DNA of 41,932 nt from Kiritimatiellia bacterium (GTDB lineage: Bacteria > Verrucomicrobiota > Kiritimatiellia > RFP12 > UBA1067). This document shows positions 9,125 to 35,669 of the stretch, in pieces. The notes beneath the pieces are model-generated. The model worked only from the letters and a program-made list of their open reading frames with translations. It made no database searches and was not told the DNA's origin. The stretch spans positions 1-41,932 of the forward strand of contig JAFUEM010000016.1 of the NCBI GenBank assembly GCA_017463935.1, given 5' to 3'. Every line of letters begins with the position of its first letter. Within the stretch, counting starts at the first letter, position 1. A program made the position numbers and the translations under genes.

Positions 9125-11182
9125 ATGCAAAAGTCTTTTGTTGTTGTTGCGATGTGCCTGGTCTGTGCGGTTCTGCGTGGCGCTGACACGCCGGCAGGGA
9201 AGCAGGTGCGCGTCTATCCGACGCCGAAGCATCTTGAGCTGACGGGCGGCGTGTCGAAGGTGCGTCCGGGCGAGGTGAAATTCCGTCGCGTGGACGGGCT
9301 CGGCCCGGAAGGTTATCGGATCGTCGCCACCAGGGATGCCGTCACCGTGGAGGTTACCGCGAAGGCCGGCGGCTTCTATGCGAAACAGACGCTCCGCCAG
9401 CTGGCGGCGGACGGCGCGATTCCCTGCTGCACCGTCGAGGACGCGCCGGACGTTCCGCTGCGCGGCGTGGTCGAGGGGTTCTACGGCCGCCCGTGGGGCA
9501 CCGAAGGCCGGCTCGATCTGATGGACTTTATGGGGCGCTACAAGATGAACTGCCTGATCTACGGTCCCAAGGACGACCCCTATCATCAGGGCCGATGGAA
9601 GGATCTTTACCCCGACGGCCCTGTCGCGGACTTCCGGCGGCTGCTCAGCGCGGCGCGGAAGAACCACGTGAAGTTCTACTGGGCCGTCCATCTCGGCGAC
9701 GCCTTCAAGGATCCCGCGCCCGCCGCGCGCCAAGCCGAATATGCGGCGCTCTGGCGCAAGCTCGATTCCATGTACGACATCGGCTTCCGCTGTTTCGCCG
9801 TGTTTTTCGACGACTTCGGCCATGCCGACGCCGCGCTTCATGCGGAGATCAGCAATCGCGTCAAGCGTGATTTTCTCGATCGCAAGGGCGACTGCGCGCC
9901 GCTGATCGTCTGCCCGAACGATTATGTCGGCGACGATCGAAGCCCCTACAGCCATGTGATCGGCGAGAAGGCGGACAGGGACATCCGCATCATGTGGACG
10001 GGAATGGGCGTCTGCAGCGACATCACGGCCGCCGCCACCGAGCGGCGCGCGAAGGCGCTGCGCCGCACGCCGTTCATCTGGTGGAACTGGCCCGTCAACG
10101 ATTTCGTCCGGTGCAAGCTGCCCATGGGGCGGACGTACGGCGTGGACGACTACCCCTATTCCGGCTTCGTGTCGAACCCGATGGAGAATCTCGAGGCGTC
10201 CAAGGTCGCGCTCTTCGGCATCGCCGACATGCTCTGGAACAGGCGGGCGTTCAATTCCGAGCGCAACTGGCAGGACGCGATGAAGCATCTCTATCCGTTC
10301 GCGGCGCAGGCGATGCTGCGCTTCTGCGAGCACAACGCCGACCCGCACAAGGAGCCGGGCGCGACGGGCGGTTTCTGGCGCGAGGAGTCGGAGCGTTTCG
10401 CGGCGGCGTTTGCGGCGGAAGGCGCCTCCGCGCTCGCGCGCGAATGCGCGGCGAACGCCACCGCCGCCGAGGAGCTGGCGCGCGTCCTGCCTGAAAAGGC
10501 TCCGAAACTCTGGCGGGAAATCCGGTGGTGGGTGGCGTTCTTCGGTGCGCAGGCGCGCGAGGGTCTTGCGGCGGCGCGGGGCGACGCGGCTGCCTACGTC
10601 AAGGCCAAGGACGACTGCCGCGACATCCAGCAGCGGCAGAAGGCCTACTTCCAGTCGCTTGCGCCGGAGTGGGACCGGCGCCGCTGCACGGGGTGTGTCA
10701 CGGCGACGCGCCATCTGCAGAAGGCCATCGACGACTGCGCGAAGGCGGCCTTCCGCGAACGGCCGGACGTGTACGCGCGCTATTTCCCGACGCTGGGCAC
10801 GACCATCGGGACGATACCGGCCATCGCGGCCAAGGGGCAGCATTTCGAGCGCGGCGAGACGCTGCTGGTGCTCGACAACATCCTTGAGCAGCTGTCGGCC
10901 CGGCCGGGAGACTGGTTCGGGATGAAGATGTCGAAGACGGCGACGTTCAACTACATCTGGCTGCATTTCGACACGACGGAGGCCGTGACGAGCGGGCGTG
11001 TCGAGGTGTCGAAAGACGGCGGAAACACCTGGCAGAACGTTCAGCTGGAAACGGACGGACGCGGTTTGCTCTATGGCCGTGTGGCGGCGGAAGCCGGCTT
11101 CAATGCCGTGCGCTGGATCAATACGTCCGGCCGTCCGGTCAGTTTCAAAATCACGCGGTTCAATGTCGATCTGGTCAAGTGA
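9125..11182 (+). CDS. GH84 beta-N-acetylglucosaminidase (O-GlcNAcase/hyaluronidase-like) with C-terminal beta-sandwich
   Basis: RGVVEGFYGRPW, YGPKDDPYH, catalytic VFFDDF, WWNWPVND. Purine-rich SD before ATG 9125 and signal peptide. Confidence 0.9.
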   Translation: MQKSFVVVAMCLVCAVLRGADTPAGKQVRVYPTPKHLELTGGVSKVRPGEVKFRRVDGLGPEGYRIVATRDAVTVEVTAKAGGFYAKQTLRQLAADGAIPCCTVEDAPDVPLRGVVEGFYGRPWGTEGRLDLMDFMGRYKMNCLIYGPKDDPYHQGRWKDLYPDGPVADFRRLLSAARKNHVKFYWAVHLGDAFKDPAPAARQAEYAALWRKLDSMYDIGFRCFAVFFDDFGHADAALHAEISNRVKRDFLDRKGDCAPLIVCPNDYVGDDRSPYSHVIGEKADRDIRIMWTGMGVCSDITAAATERRAKALRRTPFIWWNWPVNDFVRCKLPMGRTYGVDDYPYSGFVSNPMENLEASKVALFGIADMLWNRRAFNSERNWQDAMKHLYPFAAQAMLRFCEHNADPHKEPGATGGFWREESERFAAAFAAEGASALARECAANATAAEELARVLPEKAPKLWREIRWWVAFFGAQAREGLAAARGDAAAYVKAKDDCRDIQQRQKAYFQSLAPEWDRRRCTGCVTATRHLQKAIDDCAKAAFRERPDVYARYFPTLGTTIGTIPAIAAKGQHFERGETLLVLDNILEQLSARPGDWFGMKMSKTATFNYIWLHFDTTEAVTSGRVEVSKDGGNTWQNVQLETDGRGLLYGRVAAEAGFNAVRWINTSGRPVSFKITRFNVDLVK

Positions 11183-11496
11183 AAAATGGCGGCTGTACGT
11201 CGCGCTCGTCGCCGGTCTGCTACTCAGCGCCGCCGCGTCTGCGCGCGGGCTGCACGACCTCTTCCCGTTCCGGCTGGACGTGGCGGTGAGCAACGCGCAG
11301 ATCGCGGACGCGCCGGACCGTGAGCTCGCGCTCATCGCGCGGCATTTCAATTCGGTGACGCCGGAGAACGCGCTGAAGCCCCAGCCGCTCCAGCCGGGAC
11401 AGCTGGCTCAACGACTTCCCCGTGCGCGGGCGCACGGACTATCCGCTCCTCTTCGACCGCGAACTCAGGCTCAAGCGCTGGGTGACGCGCCTTTAG
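11163..11496 (+). pseudogene. GH10 endo-xylanase remnant: N-terminus joined out of frame to C-terminus
   Basis: One frame gives a signal peptide and [21 protein letters not shown] (to 11399). Another frame from 11398 gives [21 protein letters not shown]...stop 11496. These are the two characteristic GH10 termini. The start is uncertain. Confidence 0.85.
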
Positions 11497-11772
11497 CGCA
11501 GCCGGCAGAGCTCCGGTTGGTTCCGCGCGGCTTCGCGCCCGCCCGCACGTAAACACGCATATTCGCGTTTGCGGGGAGGACCGCGCCCCGTCGCGGCCGT
11601 ATTAATTGGGGATATTCCAAAAACCACGCCGCGTGATTTTTTGGTATAATATAGCACGTCTTCCATAATACGTCTTCAAAATACATCTTCAAACCGCAAA
11701 CTAAAAAAAGGAATGTTGATAACGAAACAGTAAAACGGTCATAGGCGGGCAACCGCCACGGTCGCCACATTG

Positions 11773-11798
11773 GTAGGGCGCGATGTCCTCATCGCGCC
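11773..11798 (+). repeat. GTAG-type REP-like palindrome
   Basis: GTAG (11773-11776) immediately followed by a perfect 9-bp stem, GGCGCGATG-TCCT-CATCGCGCC. Confidence 0.6.
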
Positions 11799-12027
11799 GA
11801 AAACCGATGGAGCGTGGCAGAATCAATTTGCAATGCTGCAAAGCAGTCGTTTGTTGAAACCTAGTAAATTTCATGTTAGACGACACCTTGCAGAGGAAAC
11901 GCATGTGCGTTTGCCTCTCTTCGTGTTTCTAACAGGGCAATACTAGGGCCTCAACAAAGACACAAAGGGAGGCTTTCCATATCCTCGATTCGTGTCAGAC
12001 CGCCGAGCGGTAGAACGGATCGAGCGA

Positions 12028-12678
12028 ATGAAAACAGAAACAGACATAGGAACTGATGCTGCGTTTATCCGAAGGATGGACGCAATAGATCGCCACGACA
12101 TGGTTGTCCTTTTGAAGGATGGCAATGACGATGCGTGGCGTTATGTCCTTTTTCGAGCAGTAGTGCCTGTACTGCACCGCCCAATGTTGGCTAAAATCAA
12201 GTCGGATCGGCATCTTTCGGATTTGGATGTATTAGGGATGCTGTTTGAGCAACTTATCCAGAAAAACGATATAGACAACTATGCCTGCAAGTGTCCAATT
12301 ATCTATTGGATTCGCCCGTATGTGTTCAAGGTGGTGATGGAGTACTGCAAGAAAAACGATGCTCCTGTGTCAGACGAGGACTTCCTTAGCGTCTTAAAGG
12401 ACGAAGCAACGCCAATACCGAACACCGAAATGTTCGAGGAGGCGAGAATGTGTTTCAACCGATTGTGGAAAGAAGATCAATTGAAAGCGAGAGTTCATTA
12501 TCTGAAGACGGTAAGCGAGATGTCGTCACGCGACATCATGCGATTGCTTCATATTTCATCAGAGGCAAATGTCAATCAGTTATTCTCTCGTGCTTGCAGA
12601 TTAATGCGTTCATACAGGGATGAATTACGACAGATGCCGGCAGAACAAGGGAAGGAGGTTCTGTATGCGCTGTCCTGA
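12028..12678 (+). CDS. Divergent ECF-type sigma-70-like factor
   Basis: About 216 aa. LLKDGNDDAWRYV (ECF region 1.2/2-like) and region-4-like HTH ARVHYLKTVSEMSSRDIMRLLHISSEANVNQLFSRA. Overlaps a zinc-finger anti-sigma-like gene. Confidence 0.6.
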   Translation: MKTETDIGTDAAFIRRMDAIDRHDMVVLLKDGNDDAWRYVLFRAVVPVLHRPMLAKIKSDRHLSDLDVLGMLFEQLIQKNDIDNYACKCPIIYWIRPYVFKVVMEYCKKNDAPVSDEDFLSVLKDEATPIPNTEMFEEARMCFNRLWKEDQLKARVHYLKTVSEMSSRDIMRLLHISSEANVNQLFSRACRLMRSYRDELRQMPAEQGKEVLYALS

Positions 12679-14125
12679 CATAGAGGAGTTGATACAATTC
12701 GCCCGGCAGCAAGCATCAGAACGTGATGCTGCCATTGTCGATCATATTGCGGTGTGCGAAAAGTGCCGCCATGAACTGCGAATCATAAACGAAACGCTGG
12801 CGGCAGATGATTGGATGATGCCAGATGGATATGATGATGTCGGAAGCGTTATCCCCAAATGTCGTGACGATGTGCGGCGGTACATTAAAATCGCCTCGAA
12901 AGTAACGGCGGATCGTTGGGGCAAAATGACGATTGCGCCCGGAGACCGTATGATTGTTGATCCGGTGACGAAAGAATGTGTGCCGGCGACCAAGGAGAAT
13001 GTAGAATTGTTCAAGTGCAATGGGATGAGCCTTTACATCAATCCTGACACTGATATGCAGTCCAATCTGAATGTCATGCGAAATTGCACGAGAGGATTCG
13101 GTACCGCACTTGGAATGAACATGGAGGCGCTTAAGGGTGCGGCAATCCCAGATTACAATCTGCCGTGGTGGGTAAAGCTCGTGCCGTCGCCGCTGCAAGT
13201 TAGTTTCCGAAATTGTCGAGAAATCCCAGTGCGACAAAGCGATTTTATAGAGCATCTTGGACGGCGAGGTGTCATACCCTCATCTGATGACATTCGCCAT
13301 GATGTTTGGGAAGACATCAAAAATTCAAATCTCTTCCGGGTATATGAACTTCGAGGATGGGGCGTAGTTTTCCATGTCTATTCAATCTTCGTTACGCACA
13401 TTGCTGTTGAAAAACACTGTGGCATAACAAAGTTGCTCATAAAACCAGCAGGAGATAAAGTCTATAAAGCGGTGGCGGACTTTGTAAAGGCATGGAAAGG
13501 GCATTTGGAGAAACCTAATTGTAAGTGCCTGTCCATAGGGGCATTCGGTGGATGGGATAAAATGAATGTCGTAGAATTGCCTGACAGTGTTCAGGTGTTG
13601 TCGTCGCCGAACAATGATGGTTCAGGAACATGGACGGTAAGACACAATTCGCTTGAACACATGCGCCCAATTTATCGGACGCTTGTCTATCGCCTTTATC
13701 CTGAATCTTGGGCGACTTGGCACGACAGAATCTGTGAAGTCCTTAAGCATGACTCTTTCGAATGCAGCATGACAGTGGCTCGCATGGCAGACATTTCCAA
13801 AGTGCCGCAATATTGTGTTGCGGAGATTTTCGAGGATTTGCGGAAAAGTGACAAAAGATGGCGTTCGGTGAAGAACAAGGTTACAGGCGAATTGGCGCTT
13901 GCGCCTGCCAACGGGAGTTCGGATGCCGGTTCTTTTGTGTCATTGCAAAGCAAGTGGCCGTGGCTTATGCTGGATGGGTCGTTGCTTGTCCTCCAGACGT
14001 TATTGATACAAAGCATTTGCAGGGAAATAAAACTGTGGAATGTTTTGGGTGCCTCAACGGTGTTTTTTGTCTTGATAGTATTTCTCGTTCTAAAAAACAA
14101 TATGCAAAGGAAAATCAAGGAATAA
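12665..14125 (+). CDS. Membrane protein with N-terminal ZAS (zf-HC2) zinc finger, putative winged helix and two C-terminal TM helices
   Basis: SD GGAGG, then MRCP...HIAVCEKC (Cx..Hx3Cx2C). wH-like segment about 13718-13910. Hydrophobic WPWLMLDGSLLVLQTLLI and LWNVLGASTVFFVLIVFLVL. Confidence 0.65.
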   Translation: MRCPDIEELIQFARQQASERDAAIVDHIAVCEKCRHELRIINETLAADDWMMPDGYDDVGSVIPKCRDDVRRYIKIASKVTADRWGKMTIAPGDRMIVDPVTKECVPATKENVELFKCNGMSLYINPDTDMQSNLNVMRNCTRGFGTALGMNMEALKGAAIPDYNLPWWVKLVPSPLQVSFRNCREIPVRQSDFIEHLGRRGVIPSSDDIRHDVWEDIKNSNLFRVYELRGWGVVFHVYSIFVTHIAVEKHCGITKLLIKPAGDKVYKAVADFVKAWKGHLEKPNCKCLSIGAFGGWDKMNVVELPDSVQVLSSPNNDGSGTWTVRHNSLEHMRPIYRTLVYRLYPESWATWHDRICEVLKHDSFECSMTVARMADISKVPQYCVAEIFEDLRKSDKRWRSVKNKVTGELALAPANGSSDAGSFVSLQSKWPWLMLDGSLLVLQTLLIQSICREIKLWNVLGASTVFFVLIVFLVLKNNMQRKIKE

Positions 14126-14143
14126 ACGGAAAGAGGTGCAGAA

Positions 14144-14725
14144 ATGGCGCTAAACGACGTTCTAAATGAAGTTGCAAAGCAACTTGGACTGAGAGACACG
14201 CGGATAGACACGCTGCGTAGAAAGCAAGCGGAACTTTCCGAATCCATACGAGACAACCATGACAGATTGGAGGCGCTGAAGAAACGCGTTGACGATCTTG
14301 ATTCTCGGCTCATCAAGAAAAAGCACGAGTATGATGCTGCAGGCCCCGGAAGGAAAAGGATTATAAAGGAAGAGATCAAGTTGCTCTTTGCGCAACAGGA
14401 TCGAATCACGGAGCCTGTGTCAGCCATTGCAGACCGCATACGGCTTGATGAGCTTGTAAAAGACAAGATAGACATTCTCATATTTGCCGAAGAGAATCCT
14501 TCGCGTACGGAGGAGATTGATGAGATGACGCTTGACATGAAGGAATGGCTTGACGAGCAGAAGGTCCAGTCCAAGGCTTCTGCGGAATTGGGCGACGCTT
14601 CGTATTCTCATCAAGAGGACGAAGCAGAACTCGACAGTCGCCTAAATGCGATAGACGGAGTGGATGAAACGGCTAAGGCATCTCACACCGATCCTATTGA
14701 CGAGCGAATCGCTCAATTGGGATAA
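14144..14725 (+). CDS. ESCRT-III/Snf7/PspA-superfamily-like coiled-coil protein
   Basis: All-helical with a basic N-half and acidic C-half. EEIDEMTLDMKEWLDEQ...EDEAELDSRLNAI resembles Snf7 helices 3-5. C-terminal DPIDERIAQLG is MIM1-like. Confidence 0.55.
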   Translation: MALNDVLNEVAKQLGLRDTRIDTLRRKQAELSESIRDNHDRLEALKKRVDDLDSRLIKKKHEYDAAGPGRKRIIKEEIKLLFAQQDRITEPVSAIADRIRLDELVKDKIDILIFAEENPSRTEEIDEMTLDMKEWLDEQKVQSKASAELGDASYSHQEDEAELDSRLNAIDGVDETAKASHTDPIDERIAQLG

Positions 14726-14765
14726 TCTGATTTACTGGTAACAACCTAAAGAAAGGAATCAAAAA

Positions 14766-15425
14766 ATGGGTATTGCTGATCTGTTCAAGTCCTCCAAGGA
14801 AATTGAACGCGAAAAGAACCGCGCTCGCCGTAGGGCGTTGCGCGATGTTGAACGCGCTTCTGACGTCGTCAAGGATCGCATTGCGACCTTGAAAAAGGAA
14901 CGCGATGCTGCATGGACACAGGCCCGTGAGTATCTACGCGATGGGCAGAAGTCGGCTGCTCAAAGATGCCTTCAGTCCGTACAGGCGAACGAACTGATGA
15001 TGGGCAAGCTCGAACGCAAGAGTTGGGTGTTCAGCCAGTTGGCGACAAAGATGGAAATGGCGAAGACCGATCAGGAGTTTGCCGCCGCTCTTGGCAATCT
15101 GAACACTACGCTCGAAATTGACCCCGACAAGGTTGCTGATGTGCTTGGTGACGTTGACGGTACGCTTTCAGAGCAGGGTGATATCGACAAGATATGGGAG
15201 AAGGAATACGGGAAGGAAATGAATGGACTTTCCCAATCCGATGCCATTCCGTCGGTAGAGGAGATGATGGCTAACCTTGAGAAAGAGGTTGTCGCCGATG
15301 TCACGGGCGGAAAGTCGGTGGCGGGGAAGGTCTTGTCAGCCGGAAGGGATGCCGTGGGTGGAATTGCCGAGGCTATAGGTGAGGGGCGCCGCAGGCTTAA
15401 GGCTCTGATGGACGGAAAGAAATAA
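14766..15425 (+). CDS. ESCRT-III (Snf7/Vps2/Vps24-like) protein
   Basis: MGIADLF N-terminal amphipathic start. RRALRDVER...GQKSAAQRCLQ resembles Vps2-type RALERTQRE...GQVAAAK. IDPDKVADVLGDV (helix 3/4), SVEEMMANLEKEV (helix 5), terminal RRRLKAL. Confidence 0.75.
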   Translation: MGIADLFKSSKEIEREKNRARRRALRDVERASDVVKDRIATLKKERDAAWTQAREYLRDGQKSAAQRCLQSVQANELMMGKLERKSWVFSQLATKMEMAKTDQEFAAALGNLNTTLEIDPDKVADVLGDVDGTLSEQGDIDKIWEKEYGKEMNGLSQSDAIPSVEEMMANLEKEVVADVTGGKSVAGKVLSAGRDAVGGIAEAIGEGRRRLKALMDGKK

Positions 15426-15449
15426 CCCTATTCCTTGGGAGGTAAGCGC

Positions 15450-16643
15450 ATGAGTAGTTTCAATGCGGACAAGAAGCGGGAACATGAGGCGTTGGCGGAA
15501 AAGGCGCTTGCGGCAGGAGACTACGCAAAGGCATTCTTCCATACGGCGCAAGCGGCAGAGTTCACGTTCAACCTCGCAGACCAGAGCGATGGTGATGTGG
15601 CCAGGGCTTATCTTGAAGACGCAAATGAATTGGTGAACATTGCAGCTTCGTTTAAGGAAAAGGCCGCTAAGTCTGGTGCCCGAGTGAATAAAGAAGAGTC
15701 GGGAGGTGCCGAGGTTGATGCGTCTGCAAAAGGTAAGTGGACTGTCACATCTGTCGGCGACATCCTTTTGGATGATGTAAAGGGTCTGACCGAGGCAAAG
15801 GCCGTTGTAATGGATGCATTGATTAATCCCGTTAACCATCCCGACATCTACAAGACACTTAAGGTCAAGCCGGGCACGGGACTCTTATTGTATGGCCCTC
15901 CCGGAACAGGCAAGACTATGTTTGCAAAGGCTATCGCCAATGAGATGAAGACAACGTTCATGCATGTGAAGCTGAACGAACTCAAGAGCAAATATGTAGG
16001 AGAGACGGAGCAGAACATAGCGGAGATGTTCCGTGAGGCCAGGTCCTACAAGAAATGCGTTCTGTTCCTCGATGAATGCGAATCCATGTTGCGCAAGCGC
16101 GGCAATCAAAAGGTCTGCATGGTTGAACAGTTCCTTGTCGAACTTGACGGTTTCAAGAAAGACGATGGCAATCAACTGTTTGTCCTTCTCGCCACAAACA
16201 GGCCTTGGATGCTCGACAGCGCCATTACCCGAAGCGGACGCATCAGCACGGCTGTATATGTTGGGTTGCCAGAAAAGGAGACAAGGCGGCTGATTATCGA
16301 TTCTGCACTCAAGGACGTGCCGCTTTCGCCAGATGTGGATCTTGACAAACTGTCCGACTTGACTGAGGGCTTCAGTGGAGCGGAAATCAGTCACAAGGAG
16401 AATGGCGGTGGCGTATGCGACGATGCTCGGAAGTTTGCGGCAAGAAGATGGATCGAAAGGCGGAAAAGTCAGGCGGAAGGTTCTGAAGAATGGGCAAAGA
16501 TCGAACCAGTTACATGGGCTGATTTTGACCGCGCGTTGAAAACGGTAGTTCCAACATCGAAACGTGATGCAGAAATTATACAGAAGAATCTTGCGTTTCG
16601 TGATTCGGGTGGGAATGTAAGTGACGACTCGGACTCTGATTGA
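15450..16643 (+). CDS. Single-ring AAA+ ATPase with N-terminal MIT-like domain (Vps4/CdvC-like)
   Basis: SD GGAGG. MIT-like AGDYAKAFFHTAQAAEF...ELVNIAASFKEK. DDVKGLTEAK, Walker A GPPGTGKT, pore loop SKYVGE, Walker B LFLDE, ATNRPWMLDSAI, C-terminal VTWADFDRALKTVVPT. Confidence 0.85.
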   Translation: MSSFNADKKREHEALAEKALAAGDYAKAFFHTAQAAEFTFNLADQSDGDVARAYLEDANELVNIAASFKEKAAKSGARVNKEESGGAEVDASAKGKWTVTSVGDILLDDVKGLTEAKAVVMDALINPVNHPDIYKTLKVKPGTGLLLYGPPGTGKTMFAKAIANEMKTTFMHVKLNELKSKYVGETEQNIAEMFREARSYKKCVLFLDECESMLRKRGNQKVCMVEQFLVELDGFKKDDGNQLFVLLATNRPWMLDSAITRSGRISTAVYVGLPEKETRRLIIDSALKDVPLSPDVDLDKLSDLTEGFSGAEISHKENGGGVCDDARKFAARRWIERRKSQAEGSEEWAKIEPVTWADFDRALKTVVPTSKRDAEIIQKNLAFRDSGGNVSDDSDSD

Positions 16644-16669
16644 GATTTTAACATGAAAGGATCTTGAAT

Positions 16670-17584
16670 ATGGAAGAACGTTTCATAGGCAATATGTTGG
16701 GACTATCATTTATGAAGTGGTGGTTCCTGCTGATTCCAAAGGTAGGCATGACGTTGTTCGTCGGCTATGTTTGCTACATGGGTTGGACGAATCTTGGGCC
16801 ACACAAGCCCATTCCGGATGTCGCCAGAATGAAAGCCGCCGACCATGCTGTGGATAAAATCGTTGATTCCATACAGCATAACCGAGGAGGGATGCGAAGC
16901 GCGGCGCTTTGTCATTTCGCCAACGACACGACGGACTACTTTTCGCGGAAACTTCGTGAGCGTATAGAGCAGTCGAACATCCTCGATCTGTCTGACATTG
17001 ACTTCTCCGAGAAGTTGCGTACTGTTTTGAATCTTCGCAACAAAGGTGCAACATCTGCTGACGAGGCTCGGTCAGCAACAAAAAGAGAAAATGTTGACTG
17101 TGTTTTATGGGGTAGTCTTGACAGATTCGAGTCTATAAAAGGCGGGGCAACGCTCACGGGTGAGTGGCAATTAGTAGATAAGAATACAGGCGTTGTCGTT
17201 TGCGGTGGACAAATTCATGAGGGAGCGGGATCGTCAAATTTTGTAGAAGCAATTTCGACGTTGGGGCAGTCTGCCGACGATGTCGAAATTGCCGCATCAG
17301 TCGTTCCGTGGTATATGAGACTTTTGGGTTTTGTTCTTCTTGTTCTGTTGTTGCCAATCGTTACGATATCGTTCATCAGGACAATGGTTGCGAAGCGCTC
17401 AAACAAGGTCAACGCATTTATGCTAGGTGTATACACGGTAATCGACATGATTCTTGCCTTTTTCATGGTCGGAGGAACCTTTTGTTCGTTTGCGCCGGTA
17501 GCAGTATTTCTTGGTGCATCAATGCTCGCCTTCCTCTACAATGTGTCGCTAATGTCATTTGCATTGCGTCTGGAAACGGAATAA
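16670..17584 (+). CDS. Membrane protein: N-terminal TM, CsgG/LpoB-like extracytoplasmic domain, three C-terminal TMs
   Basis: Hydrophobic stretches at both ends. ALCHFANDT...VDCVLWGSL...WQLVDKNTGVVV pattern typical of the CsgG/LpoB/TolB-N fold. Confidence 0.55.
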   Translation: MEERFIGNMLGLSFMKWWFLLIPKVGMTLFVGYVCYMGWTNLGPHKPIPDVARMKAADHAVDKIVDSIQHNRGGMRSAALCHFANDTTDYFSRKLRERIEQSNILDLSDIDFSEKLRTVLNLRNKGATSADEARSATKRENVDCVLWGSLDRFESIKGGATLTGEWQLVDKNTGVVVCGGQIHEGAGSSNFVEAISTLGQSADDVEIAASVVPWYMRLLGFVLLVLLLPIVTISFIRTMVAKRSNKVNAFMLGVYTVIDMILAFFMVGGTFCSFAPVAVFLGASMLAFLYNVSLMSFALRLETE

Positions 17585-27758: not shown

Positions 27759-30167
27759 ATGAAAGCAAAATTACTAATAACAACACTGGCGGTTGCCTCA
27801 TTGCCAATCATGGGCTACGCCGGAAGTCTTAGTCTTGACAAGACGACAGCGACACAGCAGGCAAAGGTTGCTTATGAATCCGGAAACTATGGTTTGGCAT
27901 TCAAGCTTGCGCAACAAGGTGATATGGACGATGGGCGGAATTTGTATTATCTTGCGGATATGTATTATAACGGAAGAGGTTGCTCGGTTGACAGGCAATT
28001 GGGACTGGAGCTAATGCAAAAAAGTGCAGAAAAGGGGGACCCTTTCGCCAATGCGTGGATCGGTCATTTTATTGATATACCTAAAGGCGATTACAAGTCC
28101 GCGGAGGGGCATCTGCGGATTGCTGTTGACCAAAAAAATTCTTTGGGCTACTTTGCGCTTGGCCGTATGTACGAGAAGGGTCAAATAAATGGAACCCCAG
28201 ATAAAGGAGAGGCGCTTAGATATTATCGTAAGGCCGTCACCGAAAGTGACAATCCAATGCCATGGATCTTGACAGCAGTTGGCGAGAGGCTTGCTGATAA
28301 TGGAGAGAACTCGTCCGCACTAGCGCTTTTCCGGCGGGCAGCAGAAAAGAAATTCCCATCTGCTCTGTTTATTCTTGGGCGAGCATACAAGTATGAATGG
28401 TACGGTCTGGTAAAGAATTTTGGAGAGGCGGAAAGATACTTAAAGGAAGCTATAGCTTGTGCCGAGCAATTAACAGCTGAGAGTACGGAATTGTCTGCAA
28501 TAATGGAATTGATTGGCCTTTATGGTGAACGAATGTCGTCTGGCGATTGTTCGGATTCAATTAGAGGGGCCATATATAAATATCATGAACGCCTATCTAG
28601 TTTAGACGCCAAGCATGAAGGCGATAAAGAGACTTTGGGTAGAGCATATTTATCACTTGGATTAATATATTGTGCGTATCTGGAAGACTATAAGCGTGGC
28701 TTTGAAGCATACACTGCGGCAGCAAATCTAGACAATGGTGATGCATGGGCTGATTTGGGGATTATGTATGAAAACGGTGAGTATGTTGCGAAGTCAGAGG
28801 AAGAAGCCAGAAAATGCTATGAGAGGGGGGCGAGTCTTAAGAGCGCTTGCTGTATGTGGAATCTTGCTGGAATTTACGATAAAGAAGGGGATAAAAACAA
28901 GGCGTTAGCTTTTCTTGTTGAGGCGCACTATCTCGATAAAGACGATGTCTTGATATTGGGCACATTGTTGAAAGTGCTGCAACGTGAAGGCAGGATACAG
29001 GAATTTAAACATATAGTTAGTCGAATTGATGTAGAAGCAACAGTTAGGAAGGCCATAGAGTCGGATGTGGATTGGTTGAAATTCAATTTTGCAACGTATC
29101 TAGATAATGGGTTGTTCCCGCTTGATAAAGGGAAATCCAGTGCAATGATGGCAGAGCTTTCTAAGAAAAGTGATTGTTGTGCAAGCGCACATATGGCTCA
29201 TGAAGCGATACTCAAGGGAGACAACAAAAAAGCTTTCGACTTGCTGACTATGGCTTATAAAGAAAATCCAAACTGTCCGAATGTGCTCAAGTTGTTGGGA
29301 GTAGGATGCCTTAATAGGCGTTGGCAAACGCCTAGGGATGGAATTGCATATCTTGCAAAGGCTGCTACACAAAAATCTCAATCTGCATGTATTACACTTG
29401 CCTGTTGCTATGCGTTTCCTCCAAAAGAACTTAATCTTGGCATCGTGAAGGATTATAAAAAGGCGAGGTTGTATGCGGAAATGGCCGCACAAGAAGAGGA
29501 ATTAAAGCCATATGCCGATGTGCTTATTGCATGGATTGATATTGGCGAGTCTGATATGATGCCGCAGTCTGAAAAATGCAAGAAAGCATTCAATGTAATC
29601 AAGAAGAACGCAGATGATGGCCGGGTTATGGCTTTTGGGCTCCTGGCGGCTTGTTACCAAAATGGTTGGGGGACATCTAAGAATCGTGCGAAAGCAGATG
29701 AGTGGTATGAGAAGGCAAGAAATTATCAAGGCCCTTCATTTATGATGGAAGGCTATAAAAGAAGCTTAGAGAAAATAGACGCTGGGAAAAAGAAATTTGA
29801 CAATTCTGAGAATGGATCGGATGTTGAAACGAGCAATAAGAGTGGCGACAAAGGAAAGTCGGTTGAAGCCTCGGTAGGTTATCCTCACGAATGGCCGATG
29901 CCCTTGGGGATGTTTCGTGGTGTGTTTGAGATTTGTGTTTCGCCAATTGATGCGTTTAGGGGGCTTGTTACAAAGCCATTTACCCATTTGTTCGGAGCTG
30001 TTGATCTAATTGAACGGGTTGGCGCTGGTGTCGCAGACATTTGTACTTTTGGTTGGGTTGGCAACAAACTGTATGGAATAAGTCGAGACTTTGAGATTTG
30101 GCCTTGGGGTTGTAATTGCGATGGTTGTAAGGTGTATTGGCGCGAAAAGAATATTGGTGGAAGATGA
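27759..30167 (+). CDS. Secreted SEL1-like (TPR) repeat protein
   Basis: Signal peptide. Repeats such as YYLADMYYNGRGCSVDRQLGLELMQKSAEKG, LGRMYEKG, LGIMYENGEYVAKSEEEARKCYERGA, LAACYQNGWGTSKNRAKADEWYEKA. Confidence 0.9.
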   Translation: MKAKLLITTLAVASLPIMGYAGSLSLDKTTATQQAKVAYESGNYGLAFKLAQQGDMDDGRNLYYLADMYYNGRGCSVDRQLGLELMQKSAEKGDPFANAWIGHFIDIPKGDYKSAEGHLRIAVDQKNSLGYFALGRMYEKGQINGTPDKGEALRYYRKAVTESDNPMPWILTAVGERLADNGENSSALALFRRAAEKKFPSALFILGRAYKYEWYGLVKNFGEAERYLKEAIACAEQLTAESTELSAIMELIGLYGERMSSGDCSDSIRGAIYKYHERLSSLDAKHEGDKETLGRAYLSLGLIYCAYLEDYKRGFEAYTAAANLDNGDAWADLGIMYENGEYVAKSEEEARKCYERGASLKSACCMWNLAGIYDKEGDKNKALAFLVEAHYLDKDDVLILGTLLKVLQREGRIQEFKHIVSRIDVEATVRKAIESDVDWLKFNFATYLDNGLFPLDKGKSSAMMAELSKKSDCCASAHMAHEAILKGDNKKAFDLLTMAYKENPNCPNVLKLLGVGCLNRRWQTPRDGIAYLAKAATQKSQSACITLACCYAFPPKELNLGIVKDYKKARLYAEMAAQEEELKPYADVLIAWIDIGESDMMPQSEKCKKAFNVIKKNADDGRVMAFGLLAACYQNGWGTSKNRAKADEWYEKARNYQGPSFMMEGYKRSLEKIDAGKKKFDNSENGSDVETSNKSGDKGKSVEASVGYPHEWPMPLGMFRGVFEICVSPIDAFRGLVTKPFTHLFGAVDLIERVGAGVADICTFGWVGNKLYGISRDFEIWPWGCNCDGCKVYWREKNIGGR

Positions 30168-30386
30168 CCGTGAAAAATGTAATTGACGGCTGATTAATTA
30201 TTGCGATGGTAATGGCCATGCGGATTCTCCCCGGTAGCAATCCAGCTAACGGGGAGAATATTCTAATGCAAGGAGTAAGCGGTGAACTAGATGAAGTTAT
30301 AATGCTCCACTCTGAATGTCAGATTTTGCCTTTCCCACCGTCTCTATTGCTGTGAAGAACAAACGAAATAAGCAAAGGAGGCTGAT

Positions 30387-30635
30387 ATGGCGCTGCTAAA
30401 AGGTTTATGGTGGGTGGTAAAGTCAACGTTTAAACTGGCATTGGTCTTTATCTTGGTGTTAGGAGCGATGTGGGCGTTTGGTTTCGTCTCGGCGGCTATC
30501 GATGGTGGAGCGTCGCCTGCGAATCCTGTCACGATTGCGGAGTTGCGTCTACGCCAGAATCTCAGCGACCGCAATTCCTTGACCCGACATGGCTATAAGA
30601 CGTATGTCGACCTTGTCGCGAAAGCGATGAAATGA
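30387..30635 (+). CDS. Small single-pass membrane protein, unknown function
   Basis: Strong SD AAGGAGG. Hydrophobic LALVFILVLGAMWAFGFV. Confidence 0.6.
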   Translation: MALLKGLWWVVKSTFKLALVFILVLGAMWAFGFVSAAIDGGASPANPVTIAELRLRQNLSDRNSLTRHGYKTYVDLVAKAMK

Positions 30636-30899
30636 CTGCCGGAATCTTGAATGTACGGATTTAAACTTTATGACTTACATTGCAAGGCGTTGGCATTGGT
30701 CACGAAAGCAAAGGATGCCTACATGGATTAACGCTGTCAAAGCAGATAGGCTATGCATAAATATGGAATATATCCAGCATGAACAGATTTTCAACGTGCT
30801 GGGCGGAAATGCGTTCCGTATAGGGGTTGTGAATTGCGAGGGAATATGGTCCACTCGCTCCAAAATGACTTTCCCTGTTAAGATAATGGAGGATGCAAT

Positions 30900-31379
30900 A
30901 TGATGACAAAAAGAAAAATTCCCGTTCTCGCGGCAGGAATTGCCTTGGCGCTGTGTCTTGCGGCGGTTTTCGGCGGGAGCTGCCTGCCATACGATCCTGC
31001 GGGGGCGGGAGGCGACGAGTCGTTTCTTGAGTGTTGTGCCGTGTGTTGTGTCGTCGCCGGGGTGATGTTTCTCCCCGTTGCGTCGGTGTGCTTTGCGAAA
31101 AGGCTGTTCGCCGGACGCAGGTTCCGCTTCATTCTTTCATGGCTTGTTGGATTCCTAATTCCTTGGTTGTTGCTTGTTTATGAAACGTACTTTCCTCAAG
31201 TTCCGCCTGAAGGCAGCTATTGTACGGAAGTAGAGCAATGTTTTCAATTTGCAATATTTATCGCCATTATAACAGGCGTGGTCAACGCCGTCGATTCGCT
31301 TGTGGAGCGGTTGCTTTGTAAGCTTTCAACTCAAAGAAAGGATCCATCAAATGAAAATGAAGTGTCCATTAACGCTTAA
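30900..31379 (+). CDS. Hypothetical membrane protein (about 4 TM)
   Basis: SD GGAGG. Four hydrophobic segments. Confidence 0.55.
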   Translation: MMTKRKIPVLAAGIALALCLAAVFGGSCLPYDPAGAGGDESFLECCAVCCVVAGVMFLPVASVCFAKRLFAGRRFRFILSWLVGFLIPWLLLVYETYFPQVPPEGSYCTEVEQCFQFAIFIAIITGVVNAVDSLVERLLCKLSTQRKDPSNENEVSINA

Positions 31380-33570: not shown

Positions 33571-33654
33571 ACTAAGGATAAATGGTTCTGCTTTCTGTTT
33601 TGATGCTGGGGATTGTCTCCGTAGCGGAGTTAATGATATGAAAGGATCTTGAAA

Positions 33655-35669
33655 ATGAAAAAGAGCAATGCAATTGTTATTGTCCTAACGGGTTCGGCGA
33701 TTGTTTTGGCGGCGATGGGATGCTGGTTCTGCTGGCATTGTCCGTCGCGGATATATCCGCCGCACGGCCTCTTTTGGCGGCAGCTGGCGTGGAACGGCGT
33801 GGGGCTGGCCGTGTTCGCCGGGGCGTGGCTCGCCGGTTGGCGACGGCTTCTCAAGGCCGCGCCGTGGCTGATGGCCGCATGGCTCGTCGCGATTACCGCC
33901 GCGCAGTTTTTCCATCCCGTTTGCGGCGCACACAAGTGGCTCTCCTTTGGCCCGCTTCGCGTCAACGTGGCGATGTGCTTCATGCCCGTGTTCGCGCTCT
34001 TCGCCGCATGGCTGCGGGACAGAAAGCGGTTGCGCCCATGGATGTGCTGGGCGGTTCTGTCTCTGTCCGCTGCCTGGGCAGTCTGGCACGTCGCAGGGGA
34101 TGGCGGGCGCATGGAGCGGCTGGCGGCGTTTTTCAATCCCCGCGACTATTGGATGCAGGACAGGATGTATATGTCGCGGCAGCTTCTGGCGGCGTTTGGC
34201 GCGTCGCGCTGGTTCGGCGACGCCGGCAGGAGCCTCGGTCTTCTGCCCTGCCCGGAGAGCGACGGGATGATGTCCGCGTCCGCGCTGATGTTCGGCAAAT
34301 GGTTCCCGGCGGTACTCGTGGGGATTTTCACGGTCGTCGGCGCATCACTGACATTGCTCTGGAAAGGCACGGGCGACACGGCCAAGCGCATGTTTGCGAT
34401 TCTCTTCGGACTATGGCTGATCGTGCCTGCGGCATACTGCTTCCTCCATTCTCTTGCGCTTCTGCCCGTAGCGGGAATGTCGCCCGCATTGGCCGGATAC
34501 GGCGGCACGGCGGTCGTAATGGCGTGGTTCGGAATCGGCATTCTCTCTGCGATGGTAGGGAGATGTGCGCCGGAGAGTGGCTGTGACACCGGGACTCGGA
34601 TCGGGGTTATGGCGGTGTTGGGCATTTGCGGCGCATGGATAGGCATTGCGGTTCTGGGGGTTGGTGTGCTTGTTTTGAGGTGCCTATCTGTTGAGGCGGA
34701 GAATCTGAAGTTCGCCGAGCCGAGGCCGTCGGACATGGAGTTCGGCGAGTTCGGCCTTGTCCCGAAGCGCGGACGGATTCTCGCCGCAGACGGGTCGCCG
34801 CTCGCCTACACGGTGCGGTCGTGAAGCTTCCATGTCGACCCACGTGTTCCGGAGGCAAAAACCGGCGACTCCTGCCGCTTCGCGGAGGCGGTGGCGCTCG
34901 GTTTTCGTCTGAATCCGAATGATGTCCGCGACGCTTATCAAAACACGCAGTCGCGTTACGTGCCGATACGGGAGGCGGACGACAAGAGTTCCGAAAATGA
35001 CTGGTACGAGCGGAACCGCCGATTGGCAAAGAAAGCCGGAATCATCCGCGAGCCTGTCCAGAAGCGCATCTATCCTCTTGGCGAGGCGGCGACGGCTGTG
35101 GTCGGCTTCATGCACGGCGGTGCGCATACGGACACGCCGCAGGGGGCGGGCGGTCTAGAGTGGGCTTTTGACAAGACGCTTGCCGGGACGAACGGCGCAG
35201 ACGATGCCAGCCTCCGCCTGGACGAGCGCGCACGACGCGTCCCGCCCGCGCCCGGCGCGGACGTCCGTGCGACCATCGTCCCCGACATCCAGAAGGCCGC
35301 GTGGGGGGCGCTCTCGCCGCCGCCTGCGCGACGAACGGCGCGGAGTCCGCATTTGCGCTCGTGATGAAGGTGCCGTCCGGCGAAATCGCGGCGATGGCGT
35401 CGTGGCCGTCGTTCGATCCGTCCAGGCGCAGGAAACTCGGCACATGGGACTTTTCAATGGCCGCCAACCGCGCCGCGCAGACCGTGTTCGAGCCGGGCGG
35501 GCTCGCGCGGCCGATGATCGAGGCGATCGCGCTTGATTCGGGCGTCGAGGCTGACGTCACGAACATCGTCTCTTGGGTGGGCGCGGAAAAGTTCCATGCC
35601 GCGCTGCGGTCCGTATTCATGGACATCCTGAATCTGCTGTCGCGGAACACAGGTCGCTCCCGGCGGTAA
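33655..35669 (+). pseudogene. Decayed FtsW/RodA (SEDS)-class B PBP fusion gene
   Basis: SEDS motifs (GAHKWLSFGPLRV, RLAAFFNP, LPCPESD, PALAGYGGT) run into PBP PKRGRILAADG. In-frame TGA at 34822-34824; the same frame continues RIYP...GLEWAFDKTLAG. Frameshift near 35303-35315 into GEIAAMASWPSFDP...VFEPG, which lacks SxxK. Confidence 0.8.

Follow-up and report, generated by a model that had tools for sequence, protein, structure and literature searches.

In the described pairs of an ECF sigma factor and a zinc anti-sigma (ZAS) protein, namely RsiW-SigW, RsrA-SigR, RslA-SigL, ChrR-SigE and DdvA-DdvS, the anti-sigma factor bears an N-terminal cysteine and an HxxxCxxC motif at the junction of helices 2 and 3, and its gene lies directly after, and overlaps, that of the ECF-type sigma factor. 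In the PspA-PspF system an ESCRT-III-superfamily component holds a transcription factor that is released on stress to induce the system (PMC7619361). ESCRT-II (Vps22/Vps25/Vps36), the winged-helix (wH) proteins of Asgard archaea and CdvA-CdvB each place a wH protein beside ESCRT-III and an AAA ATPase at the membrane (PMC11237479, PMC7619361), and according to a recent review bacteria appear to be without a Vps4-like ATPase (PMC7619361). The DO-GTPase NTP-dependent conflict systems are marked by proteins of the GTPase/FGE-sulfatase/zinc-ribbon type together with kinase and Sel1/TPR hallmarks (Kaur et al. 2020, PMC7159879).

A locus from an uncultured bacterium of the PVC group (Kiritimatiellia; the window is the whole 41,932-nt stretch analysed, positions 1 to 41,932 of contig JAFUEM010000016.1) can be set against each of these systems. 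It shares with the ZAS/ECF pairs both the cysteine/HxxxCxxC signature and the gene order, but the 275-aa cytoplasmic domain, the wH and the C-terminal transmembrane (TM) hairpin of its anti-sigma candidate are without counterpart in known anti-sigma factors, an extracytoplasmic sensor is lacking, the sigma has diverged much further than typical ECFs and the pair is dedicated to Snf7/AAA operons. The hold-and-release logic that we infer here is that of PspA-PspF (and LiaIH/LiaFSR). In Psp, however, the ESCRT-III protein itself binds the sigma-54 activator, an AAA+ protein, whereas in the present locus the holding of an ECF-type sigma would fall to a distinct protein anchored in the membrane, the ESCRT-III protein is of the Snf7 type, the AAA+ protein belongs to the classical clade, and the regulators show no homology to those of Psp. 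In comparison with ESCRT-II, anchoring is by integral membrane helices instead of lipid or ubiquitin binding, and many related Snf7-AAA loci have no copy of the protein; the wH of the Cdv system resides on CdvB and not on the recruiter. As in the DO-GTPase systems, the surrounding island encodes DO-GTPase2-type GTPases fused to FGE-sulfatase and zinc-ribbon arrays, a Ser/Thr kinase and Sel1/TPR proteins, and related loci additionally share with them caspase-like, papain-like and Lit-like (U49) peptidases and FHA proteins. No regulatory head of sigma and ZAS belongs to the conflict systems as described, and Snf7 and sigma factors have 0 occurrences each in the text of PMC7159879.

We propose a model for this locus in which a cognate, divergent ECF-type sigma is paired with a cytoplasmic, hairpin-tethered ZAS anti-sigma built on a core-wH-anchor body, the body being an accessory subunit, specific to this family, of Snf7/AAA operons in bacteria; we hold this model as a whole to be probable, though well short of assured. 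The ZAS head and the sigma would form an optional unit that is gained and lost together. In the resting state the ZAS head would hold the sigma at the inner membrane, while the core-wH body may sense a change in the ESCRT-like machinery or in the membrane, such as stress or phage attack; oxidation of the Zn-thiolate site, or phosphorylation by the Ser/Thr kinase of the operon, could act as alternative triggers. The freed sigma would activate the promoter of its own operon, and perhaps further ones, in a feed-forward loop, and the pairing would most likely link transcription to the membrane-remodelling genes. What the analysis shows in silico is the gene pairing, the conserved motif, the folds of sigma and wH, the topology and the synteny; that the head binds zinc and the sigma, what the signal is and which promoter is targeted are inferred. 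The genes concerned are the following.

12028-12678, plus strand: 216-aa protein, most likely a very divergent sigma-70 family member of the ECF type (group 4-like), from fold search and relatives
12665-14125, plus strand: candidate membrane-anchored zinc anti-sigma gene, 486 aa, from the ZAS motif and coupling to the sigma gene
14144-14725, plus strand: coiled-coil protein, 193 aa, with weak coiled-coil matches only (Pfam, NCBIfam)
14766-15425, plus strand: Snf7-type ESCRT-III protein, 219 aa (Pfam Snf7, E 5.5e-7)
15435-16643, plus strand: classical-clade AAA+ ATPase, 402 aa (Pfam AAA, 2.1e-37, plus AAA_lid_3)

The ESCRT-III-like operon is horizontally acquired; att-like direct repeats or tRNA genes were looked for at the island ends and none were found. 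As the first-pass annotation had stated, the 486-aa gene lies directly upstream of ESCRT-III-like genes, the coiled-coil gene being the first of an invariant module on its 3′ side and the Snf7 gene following it. A coiled-coil homologue of approximately 193-207 aa comes directly after the homologue of the 486-aa gene in most loci inspected, and the Snf7 gene is kept downstream of that homologue in all loci. The Pfam Snf7 match of the 219-aa protein scores 29.9 bits against a gathering cut-off of 27.3, and the top PDB sequence matches of the 402-aa AAA+ protein are Cdc48/p97-class ATPases.

That the first gene encodes an ECF sigma, as had been read from the sequence at first pass, is supported by fold search and by relatives, but the protein itself passes no Pfam sigma model. 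Neither it nor the 486-aa protein gives anything significant in Pfam, NCBIfam, PADLOC, PHROGs or PDB sequences, and the NCBIfam ECF matches of the 216-aa protein are weak (E 0.013-0.08, far under the cut-offs). With its AF2 model (pLDDT 71.6) as query, the top 50 Foldseek matches in the PDB are all of the sigma-70 family and mostly ECF, SigH, AlgU, SigE, SigW and SigL among them, at probabilities of 0.9-0.98 over 170-210 aligned columns but with weak E-values (0.03-0.3). The full-length structural matches include sigma/anti-sigma complexes, and the Foldseek matches support a two-domain architecture of sigma2 and sigma4. Twelve members of the sigma family were compared with Pfam: Sigma70_r4_2 matches five (best 4.4e-7), Sigma70_r4 three and Sigma70_ECF one, with no region-2 match in any of the twelve. 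The family is extended at the N-terminus and has invariant Cys residues that are unusual, and every member whose context was inspected lies in a Snf7/AAA operon. Given the fold search and the Pfam matches of relatives, the product of 12028-12678 is most likely a very divergent ECF-type sigma factor.

At the junction with the second gene and in the N-terminal part of its product the following features are found.

12650-12658, plus strand: ribosome-binding site GGAAGGAGG of the anti-sigma gene, inside the end of the sigma gene, read from the sequence
12665-12799, plus strand: ZAS-type anti-sigma domain, aa 1-45, with putative Zn ligands and three modelled helices
12671-12673, 12743-12745, 12755-12757 and 12764-12766, plus strand: putative Zn ligands C3, H27, C31 and C34, respectively
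12800-12871, plus strand: acidic disordered linker, aa 46-69 (pLDDT <50 for residues 48-67)

The true start of the 486-aa gene is ATG 12665, which public gene calls also chose, rather than the longest-ORF start at 12620. It has a strong ribosome-binding site and overlaps the sigma gene (stop 12676-12678) by 14 nt, the two genes being translationally coupled, and an identical 14-nt overlap of sigma and anti-sigma genes is present in L019-L023. Counted from this ATG, the HIAVCEKC string in which the first-pass annotation had recognised a zinc-finger anti-sigma falls exactly where it was placed, at 12743-12766, and supplies H27, C31 and C34, with C3 lying 24 residues upstream. All four residues are invariant in 12 diverse family members, down to approximately 28% overall identity, so that the HxxxCxxC motif is not a chance match. 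The 486-aa protein has no match to Pfam zf-HC2 (PF13490; gathering score 22.2 bits) even at E<=10, while zf-HC2 is matched by nine of 12 relatives, all below threshold (best E 0.005), and sub-threshold matches to the anti-sigmas DdvA, RslA and RsiW are among the only 14 returned for the family profile against the PDB. The model of the head, at a pLDDT of only 60-79, has helices at 6-14, 21-30 and 32-45; H27 falls at the end of the second helix and C31/C34 where the third begins; a fourth helix is not clear and Foldseek gives no domain-level match. The linker behind it has a net charge of -5, an invariant W50 and a nearly invariant P53. The reading as an anti-sigma ZAS is thus carried by invariant ligands, sub-threshold zf-HC2 and anti-sigma matches, gene coupling and co-variation, although the scores stay below the curated threshold, and the product of 12665-14125 is most likely a membrane-anchored ZAS-class anti-sigma and putative zinc binder.

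The co-variation is seen in about 12 independent loci, in all of which sigma and ZAS are together present or together absent; the counts are small and the correction for phylogeny is partial, and all loci are metagenome assemblies. Both are present in the window and in L003, L010, L011, L019-21, L022-23 and L024, the ZAS is a separate gene accompanied by the sigma in L013, L040 and L042, and both are missing in L001/2/9/18, L005, L007 and L012, with no sigma-only case among the loci compared. This joint gain and loss supports a sigma/anti-sigma pair. The ZAS-less forms are nested within the ZAS-bearing clade, which points to repeated secondary losses, and in L008, the closest relative (83% identical), the ZAS is kept while the sigma survives only as a frameshifted C-terminal remnant, so a ZAS can outlast its sigma for some time. 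The N-terminal domain is variable in the family as a whole, being a ZAS, a papain-like peptidase or none, and whichever it is, the members inspected, to approximately 20% identity, lie directly upstream of coiled-coil/Snf7/AAA genes or, in the one weak case of L041, beside them. The family comprises 31 representatives at 50% identity among 1.84 billion proteins, occurs in three of 301 genomes of the phylum and has no characterised member; a scan of the genome collection with alignment A1 gave two loci and a metagenome scan one. A second match in the same genome, on contig C178, was rejected as a paralogue, being a redundant contig of window positions 10490-15818 with one mismatch. Among eight further Snf7-AAA loci of the phylum, five have no homologue of the 486-aa protein and carry other upstream genes, which argues for an accessory adaptor or regulator and not an obligate nucleator.

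The body of the 486-aa protein, behind the linker, is made up as follows.

12872-13699, plus strand: conserved alpha/beta core domain, aa 70-345 (pLDDT mostly 85-97)
13709-13906, plus strand: single predicted winged helix, aa 349-414 (AF2 pLDDT about 86-95)
13907-13951, plus strand: conserved motif NG..DAGAF close to the membrane, after the wH and before the anchor
13952-14119, plus strand: two-helix transmembrane hairpin at the C-terminus (helices 430-454 and 459-485 in the model)

At first pass this part had been described as about 300 aa of unknown domains, a presumed wH beginning at ICEVLK and running into a beta-hairpin, and two C-terminal TM segments, a description that our analysis upholds. 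The core, of approximately 275 aa, is the defining part of the family and has no match in Pfam, NCBIfam, PADLOC, PHROGs or PDB sequences; in fold searches with the complete 486-aa model against PDB and BFVD no match to it was found at E<0.04, the alignments being of the wH only. Matches of the core to Esa1 and chimallin are noise (probability 0.08-0.23, rmsd >14 A). H237, C286 and C288, considered as a catalytic site, are kept in close relatives and not in distant ones, so an enzymatic active site in the core is not supported.

The segment ICEVLK...FEDLR is modelled, at a pLDDT of about 90, as helix-helix-helix-strand-wing-strand (H1 349-362, H2 371-378, H3 382-395, strands 399-403 and 410-414), and the only high-probability Foldseek matches of the protein are winged-helix domains, over 64-72 columns at an rmsd of 1.5-3.5 A. 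They include Z-alpha (TMt 0.80, rmsd 2.4), MarR, Fur, IclR and PCI, with probabilities up to 1.0, and in BFVD the wH matches phage wH proteins. The domain has a net charge of 0, an acidic recognition helix (QYCVAEIFEDLRKS, net -1) with conserved H3 positions E387, F389 and R393, and a wing with several Lys and Arg; the segment is kept family-wide, papain-fused members included. Judged from the model, it is a generic wH, best matched by MarR, Z-alpha and PCI. A 1475-aa protein with five apparent repeats of the wH segment (P0065) proved spurious, as it is a repetitive coiled-coil protein and the match spans 30 residues.

Alignment A1 shows no variation at G422 and F424 of the membrane-proximal motif. 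Both helices of the hairpin give hydropathy peaks and are kept in homologues, including the papain-fused ones; they are joined by a 4-residue loop and end in a basic tail, KNNMQRKIKE. Neither the model nor hydropathy shows a TM segment before residue 430. As a ZAS is necessarily cytoplasmic and the hairpin holds the only TM segments, we take the whole 486-aa protein, as modelled, to face the cytoplasm.

A protein of this build could do more than hold a sigma, and the first-pass annotation had proposed that its wH nucleates ESCRT-III in the manner of ESCRT-II or Cdv. By this account, which we consider unlikely, the wH near the anchor would directly recruit or nucleate the Snf7-type filament, after the analogues of Vps20 recruitment by the Vps25 wH and of the CdvA-CdvB wH contact, and filament assembly would free the ZAS-held sigma. 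The fold is confidently predicted and conserved, its acidic recognition helix and net charge of 0 suit a protein-binding role more than a DNA-binding one, its matches include the protein-protein modules of the PCI wH type, the gene invariably adjoins coiled-coil/Snf7/AAA genes, and archaeal ESCRT-III and Vps4 are accompanied by wH proteins (PMC7619361, PMC11237479). The AF2 model, however, predicts only one wH where ESCRT-II subunits have a tandem pair, and profile similarity is lacking, ESCRT-II families being absent both among the Pfam matches of 16 wH segments at E<=10 and from a PDB profile search with the wH. The Foldseek check for likeness to Vps25, Vps22 or CdvB, made with the whole-protein model, likewise returned no ESCRT-II or Cdv structure among the top 50 PDB matches, but generic MarR, Z-alpha and Fur folds, and the five of eight Snf7-AAA loci without the protein show that it is not generally needed to seed a filament. 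The nucleator claim is not supported by these comparisons. In a wider form of the same idea, by analogy, core, wH and TM hairpin would together be a bacterial counterpart of ESCRT-II or CdvA that docks the Snf7-type filament through wH or core while the ZAS sequesters the sigma, which we likewise doubt; it is equally improbable, in our estimate, that filament assembly or AAA remodelling would then physically free the sigma and induce a defence or repair island. If true, this would amount to a direct mechanical-to-transcriptional relay of an origin independent of PspA-PspF.

Release of the sigma might instead require no partner of the body at all, with thiol oxidation of the ZAS freeing the sigma as in a cytoplasmic switch of the RsrA kind and the remainder serving only as an anchor. 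The protein is predicted to be wholly cytoplasmic, its 4-residue periplasmic loop leaves no substrate for RsiW-type site-1 proteolysis, and its extra N-terminal Cys resembles that of RsrA and the redox-active ZAS proteins. Most ZAS proteins, however, are not redox-sensitive, and the large conserved core-wH body survives without the ZAS and with other N-terminal domains, which argues that it has a function of its own onto which the ZAS was grafted as a readout; a purely redox-driven switch is, in our view, quite unlikely. Binding of DNA by the wH, as in a membrane-tethered transcription factor of the ToxR/CadC kind or a tether of DNA at the membrane, would agree with neighbours (MarR, Fur, IclR, Z-alpha) that are mostly nucleic-acid binders and with the Lys and Arg of the modelled wing, but the acidic recognition helix, the absence of net charge, conserved H3 residues that do not form a basic or polar reading head, and the presence in the operon of a dedicated sigma render it very unlikely. 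The HxxxCxxC head might also be a structural zinc finger that serves a different partner, and the sigma a sigma-like decoy or PhyR-type adaptor that does not work as an initiation factor. Its failure to pass any curated sigma model, a region 2 undetectable by sequence, the unusual invariant Cys residues and N-terminal extension, and a faint PhyR_sigma-like match in one relative (E 0.21) could be read in this way; against them stand full-length structural matches to bona fide ECF sigmas, sigma/anti-sigma complexes included, significant region 4 matches in relatives, the canonical order of sigma before anti-sigma with overlap, and the strict co-variation of sigma and ZAS, and we regard a decoy as highly improbable.

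The pairing of a cognate sigma and anti-sigma, which we prefer, has several consequences. A Snf7-type protein and a classical AAA ATPase, the latter classed by sequence match, occur together in the island, for which sigma and anti-sigma probably serve as the control head. Should the pairing prove correct, this would be the second independent ESCRT-III-family system wired to transcription after PspA-PspF; a coupling of remodelling to transcription, as foreseen at first pass, gains support as a functional link from the invariant adjacency but is, given PspA-PspF, not new in principle. In the full-text library searched, the top-ranked papers on bacterial ESCRT-III or Snf7 leave anti-sigma factors unmentioned. 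The anti-sigma architecture would also be new, being fully cytoplasmic and tail-anchored with a putative sensor domain whose fold has no match. Furthermore, sigma, anti-sigma and promoter would provide a genetic handle for heterologous induction and for a search for the stimulus.

A candidate for that promoter lies upstream of the sigma gene, where a scan for sigma-70 promoters and terminators gave nothing distinctive.

11846-11907, plus strand: conserved non-coding block, tentatively a promoter or operator, approximately 170 nt upstream of the sigma gene
11855-11860, plus strand: ECF -35-like TGAAAC, inside the conserved block
11881-11884, plus strand: CGAC, 20 nt beyond TGAAAC

An autoregulated promoter of the ECF type would have an AAC -35 and a CGT-like -10 element, and the block is a tentative candidate for one. 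L003, whose sigma is 47% identical, and L024 carry the same TGAAAC...CGAC block ahead of their sigma genes, the pattern having been derived from these same three sequences, and the spacing of its two elements is 19-20 nt in all three, longer than the usual 16-18 nt.

We propose a model in which a zinc-binding anti-sigma (ZAS) domain would be grafted onto a membrane-anchored accessory subunit of a bacterial Snf7/AAA (ESCRT-like) system, and in which the condition of this system, or of the membrane, would govern a dedicated sigma factor. A grafted anti-sigma on a Snf7/AAA accessory subunit is the best-supported picture of the 486-aa protein. Its gene lies in an island of ~47% GC (about 11.9 to 33.6 kb of the window; flanks 63-67% GC), whose large genes are all on the plus strand and tightly packed:

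12028-12678, +, 216-aa sigma-like protein
12665-14125, +, 486-aa target protein
third gene, +, 193-aa coiled-coil protein
fourth gene, +, 219-aa protein, above the Pfam Snf7 threshold
fifth gene, +, classical AAA+ ATPase
sixth gene, +, 306-aa membrane protein
seventh gene, +, DUF1294 protein
eighth gene, +, Ser/Thr kinase
ninth gene, +, protein bearing DnaJ-type zinc motifs
next genes, +, two DO-GTPase2-type GTPases, one with fused FKBP and FGE-sulfatase domains
remaining genes, +, additional large proteins

The 486-aa gene starts at ATG 12665, as also in public gene calls, with a GGAAGGAGG site 6 nt upstream, and overlaps the sigma stop by 14 nt. Counted from this ATG, the HIAVCEKC motif that the first-pass annotation placed at 12743-12766 is exact and corresponds to H27-C34, with an additional Cys at position 3. 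The AlphaFold2 model, for which 33 homologues served as input, was good (mean pLDDT 84.8, pTM 0.76) and has the following layout:

residues 6-45, three short helices
residues 48-67, acidic disordered linker
residues 70-345, large alpha/beta domain
residues 349-414, helix-helix-helix-strand-wing-strand unit
residues 430-454 and 459-485, two long terminal helices

High-probability Foldseek matches were confined to the 349-414 unit, which over 64-72 columns resembled winged-helix (wH) domains, namely Z-alpha (TMt 0.80, rmsd 2.4 A), MarR, Fur, IclR and PCI domains and phage wH proteins, as anticipated for a winged helix following the large domain. The large domain itself, previously described as ~300 aa of unidentified domains, had no significant Foldseek match in PDB or viral models. 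The two predicted C-terminal TM segments coincide with the terminal helices of the model, and hydropathy agrees, both here and in homologues. The features described beforehand are confirmed, with the identity of the sigma qualified.

The four putative ligands of the head (C3, H27, C31 and C34) are invariant, as are L9, I10, A13 and W50, in 12 members as distant from the window protein as ~28% overall identity. Pfam zf-HC2 was matched below threshold by 9/12 N-terminal segments (best E 0.005), and a head-segment profile gave 14 PDB matches at E<=10, three of them the anti-sigma factors DdvA, RslA and RsiW. The strongest evidence for the putative ZAS reading is comparative, every fetched locus having been scanned with HMMs for sigma, ZAS head and body (core domain, wH and TM hairpin). 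Sigma and ZAS were found together in the window and in relatives' loci L003, L010, L011, L019-21, L022-23 and L024, and also in L013, L040 and L042, where a small free-standing ZAS protein stands between sigma and a papain-fused body; neither was found in L001/2/9/18, L005, L007 and L012. None of the scanned loci had sigma without ZAS, and ZAS without an intact sigma occurred only in L008/L017, where the sigma gene survives as a frameshifted C-terminal remnant. In the body-region tree the ZAS-less forms nest within the ZAS-bearing clade and are therefore repeated secondary losses, and sigma is likewise absent in each ZAS-less lineage open to inspection. The 14-nt overlap is kept in loci whose sigma is ~58% identical. 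Given this co-variation, the losses and the conserved overlap, the best reading is a putative cognate sigma/anti-sigma pair. The earlier proposal of a sigma-holding ZAS protein is thereby favoured by the invariant ligands, the sub-threshold zf-HC2 matches and the joint presence or absence of the two. The co-variation counts are small, all loci come from metagenome assemblies and the analysis is in silico; weak but converging signals and strong conservation together underlie the sigma and ZAS assignments.

The 216-aa protein, initially called an ECF sigma, matched no Pfam model, and NCBIfam ECF models only at E 0.013-0.08. The claim stands through fold and relatives: the best 50 PDB fold matches of its structure model (pLDDT 71.6) were all of the sigma-70 family, mostly ECF (SigH, AlgU, SigE, SigW, SigL), with probability 0.9-0.98 over 170-210 columns and weak E-values of 0.03-0.3. 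Its family is small (24 clusters); among 12 members, five matched Sigma70_r4_2 (best E 4.4e-7), three Sigma70_r4 and one Sigma70_ECF, with region 2 matched in none. We conclude that it is probably a very divergent ECF-type sigma, by fold and transitive homology rather than by direct curated match. Unusually for ECF sigmas, C89-P90, W94 and C107 are invariant in this family (alignments A4, A8), which also has a likewise unusual N-terminal extension of ~25 aa and a conserved C-terminal KEVxxELS tail encoded within the stretch overlapping the anti-sigma start. Motif and gene order of the sigma/ZAS pair are those diagnostic of ECF/ZAS systems, as is the predicted fold of the sigma, but the pair stays below the curated profile cut-offs for such systems and is therefore filed as a divergent new variant.

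The body family is rare: clustering at 50% identity leaves 31 representatives out of 1.84 billion proteins, and it occurs in 3/301 genomes of the phylum. Its N-terminus is modular, carrying either a ZAS head or a papain-family peptidase, or no such addition. For every family member with an inspected locus, whatever the N-terminus and even at ~20% identity, the body lies directly upstream of coiled-coil (~195-205 aa), Snf7-type and AAA ATPase genes, which bears out the position just upstream of ESCRT-III-like genes noted for the window and marks the body as a dedicated companion of the ESCRT-like module. It had also been proposed to nucleate ESCRT-III. Snf7 homologues occur in 11/301 phylum genomes, and three of the loci were already known. 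Of the eight others examined, sigma comes with a separate ZAS protein and a body protein in two, a weak body-like protein is differently placed in one, and sigma, ZAS and body are all missing from five. An obligate nucleator is thus not what these loci indicate; other heads stand in its place, and the target protein is an accessory adaptor or regulator, one head among several that Snf7-AAA modules can carry. Upstream of Snf7, three of the five body-less loci (L037:5905-9522, L038:2965-6457 and L039:4156-9057) have a small excisionase/MerR-like HTH protein that ends with a zinc ribbon, along with two large zinc-ribbon proteins; this other type of head may likewise contain a transcription regulator.

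Kinship of the wH to Vps25/Vps22/CdvB found no support, with no ESCRT-II or Cdv chain among the best 50 whole-model Foldseek PDB matches. The model has a single wH, 16 wH segments matched only scattered sub-threshold generic HTH families in Pfam, and a PDB profile search gave no relevant match to the wH; no specific link to ESCRT-II or Cdv emerges, and the 486-aa protein falls outside the ESCRT-II family. Its net charge of 0, acidic recognition helix and PCI-type structural neighbours favour a protein-protein role over DNA binding for the predicted wH.

Model and sequence place no TM segment ahead of residue 430, with an inter-helix loop of four residues and a basic tail. As the ZAS head can reach the sigma only in the cytoplasm, the entire protein is predicted to be cytoplasm-facing and tail-anchored, and we infer that the periplasmic site-1 cleavage route of RsiW-type anti-sigmas is ruled out. 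The trigger for sigma release would instead be conformational, redox, phosphorylation or cytoplasmic proteolysis. The window operon encodes a kinase. Extra components in one or another related operon are FHA proteins, a Lit-like U49 peptidase, a caspase-like peptidase and a papain domain that forms part of the body protein. In L013:1309-4594, L040:10416-14252 and L042:9659-12965, sigma is followed by a separate ZAS protein (~220-250 aa) and a body of ~630-810 aa, papain-fused in L013, then by Snf7 and AAA, and the scans of L013 and L040 also showed the coiled-coil protein; a peptidase beside a free-standing anti-sigma suggests release by proteolysis. In L010:175-6246 and L019/L022/L023:1-5985 the pair lies mid-operon. 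The genes ahead of it encode a Band_7 or DZR zinc-ribbon protein, an FHA protein, two unknown proteins and Peptidase_U49 (Lit-like), which hints at phospho-signalling and an abortive-infection-type protease.

PspA-PspF (PMC7619361) follows the same functional logic as the proposed circuit with unrelated parts. The remainder of the island is made up of components of the DO-GTPase conflict systems described in Kaur et al. 2020 (PMC7159879), a text that mentions neither Snf7 nor sigma factors. The portions of a PSP survey cited here note bacterial Snf7 and VPS4-like transfers and describe no such regulator (PMC11237479). Among the papers ranked highest in full-text searches on bacterial ESCRT-III or Snf7, none mentioned an anti-sigma factor.

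A conserved block of ~60 nt, ~170 nt ahead of the sigma start, is common to the window, L024 and the distant L003, and reads TGAAAC (GGAAAC in L024), 19-20 nt, CGAC (CGAT in L024). The -35-like element resembles ECF promoters, and the 19-20 nt spacing exceeds the usual 16-18 nt. This candidate promoter is only a lead, its pattern being derived from the same three sequences; the sigma gene is mid-operon in several relatives, so the relevant promoter may lie elsewhere.

The window's genome (G000) is metagenome-assembled, 2.8 Mb and 85%-complete, and the nearest locus-bearing relatives are labelled Kiritimatiellia and Lentisphaeraceae. Its 5.3-kb contig C178 (L016) equals window 10490-15818 save one mismatch, and was rejected as a second locus copy in favour of a redundant assembly duplicate; as it spans the island's left junction, that junction has been assembled twice. 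A 34-nt direct repeat, 79% identical (16642-16675 and 33627-33660), covers two start regions, one belonging to the 306-aa membrane-protein gene and the other to the first high-GC gene on the island's right edge, and may be chance or tied to the island junction. The island's only long gap without a listed ORF (30167-30900, ~730 nt) lies between a Sel1-repeat gene and a small membrane-protein gene. In L008:9660-10011 (a Kiritimatiellia MAG; also L017) the frameshifted sigma remnant, ~75 codons, directly follows housekeeping genes (pseudouridine synthase-like, beta-lactamase-like); the ZAS head is intact, and the anti-sigma, 83% identical, is the closest relative. The L008 genome is ~47% GC throughout, equal to the island, and so resembles the kind of donor behind it.
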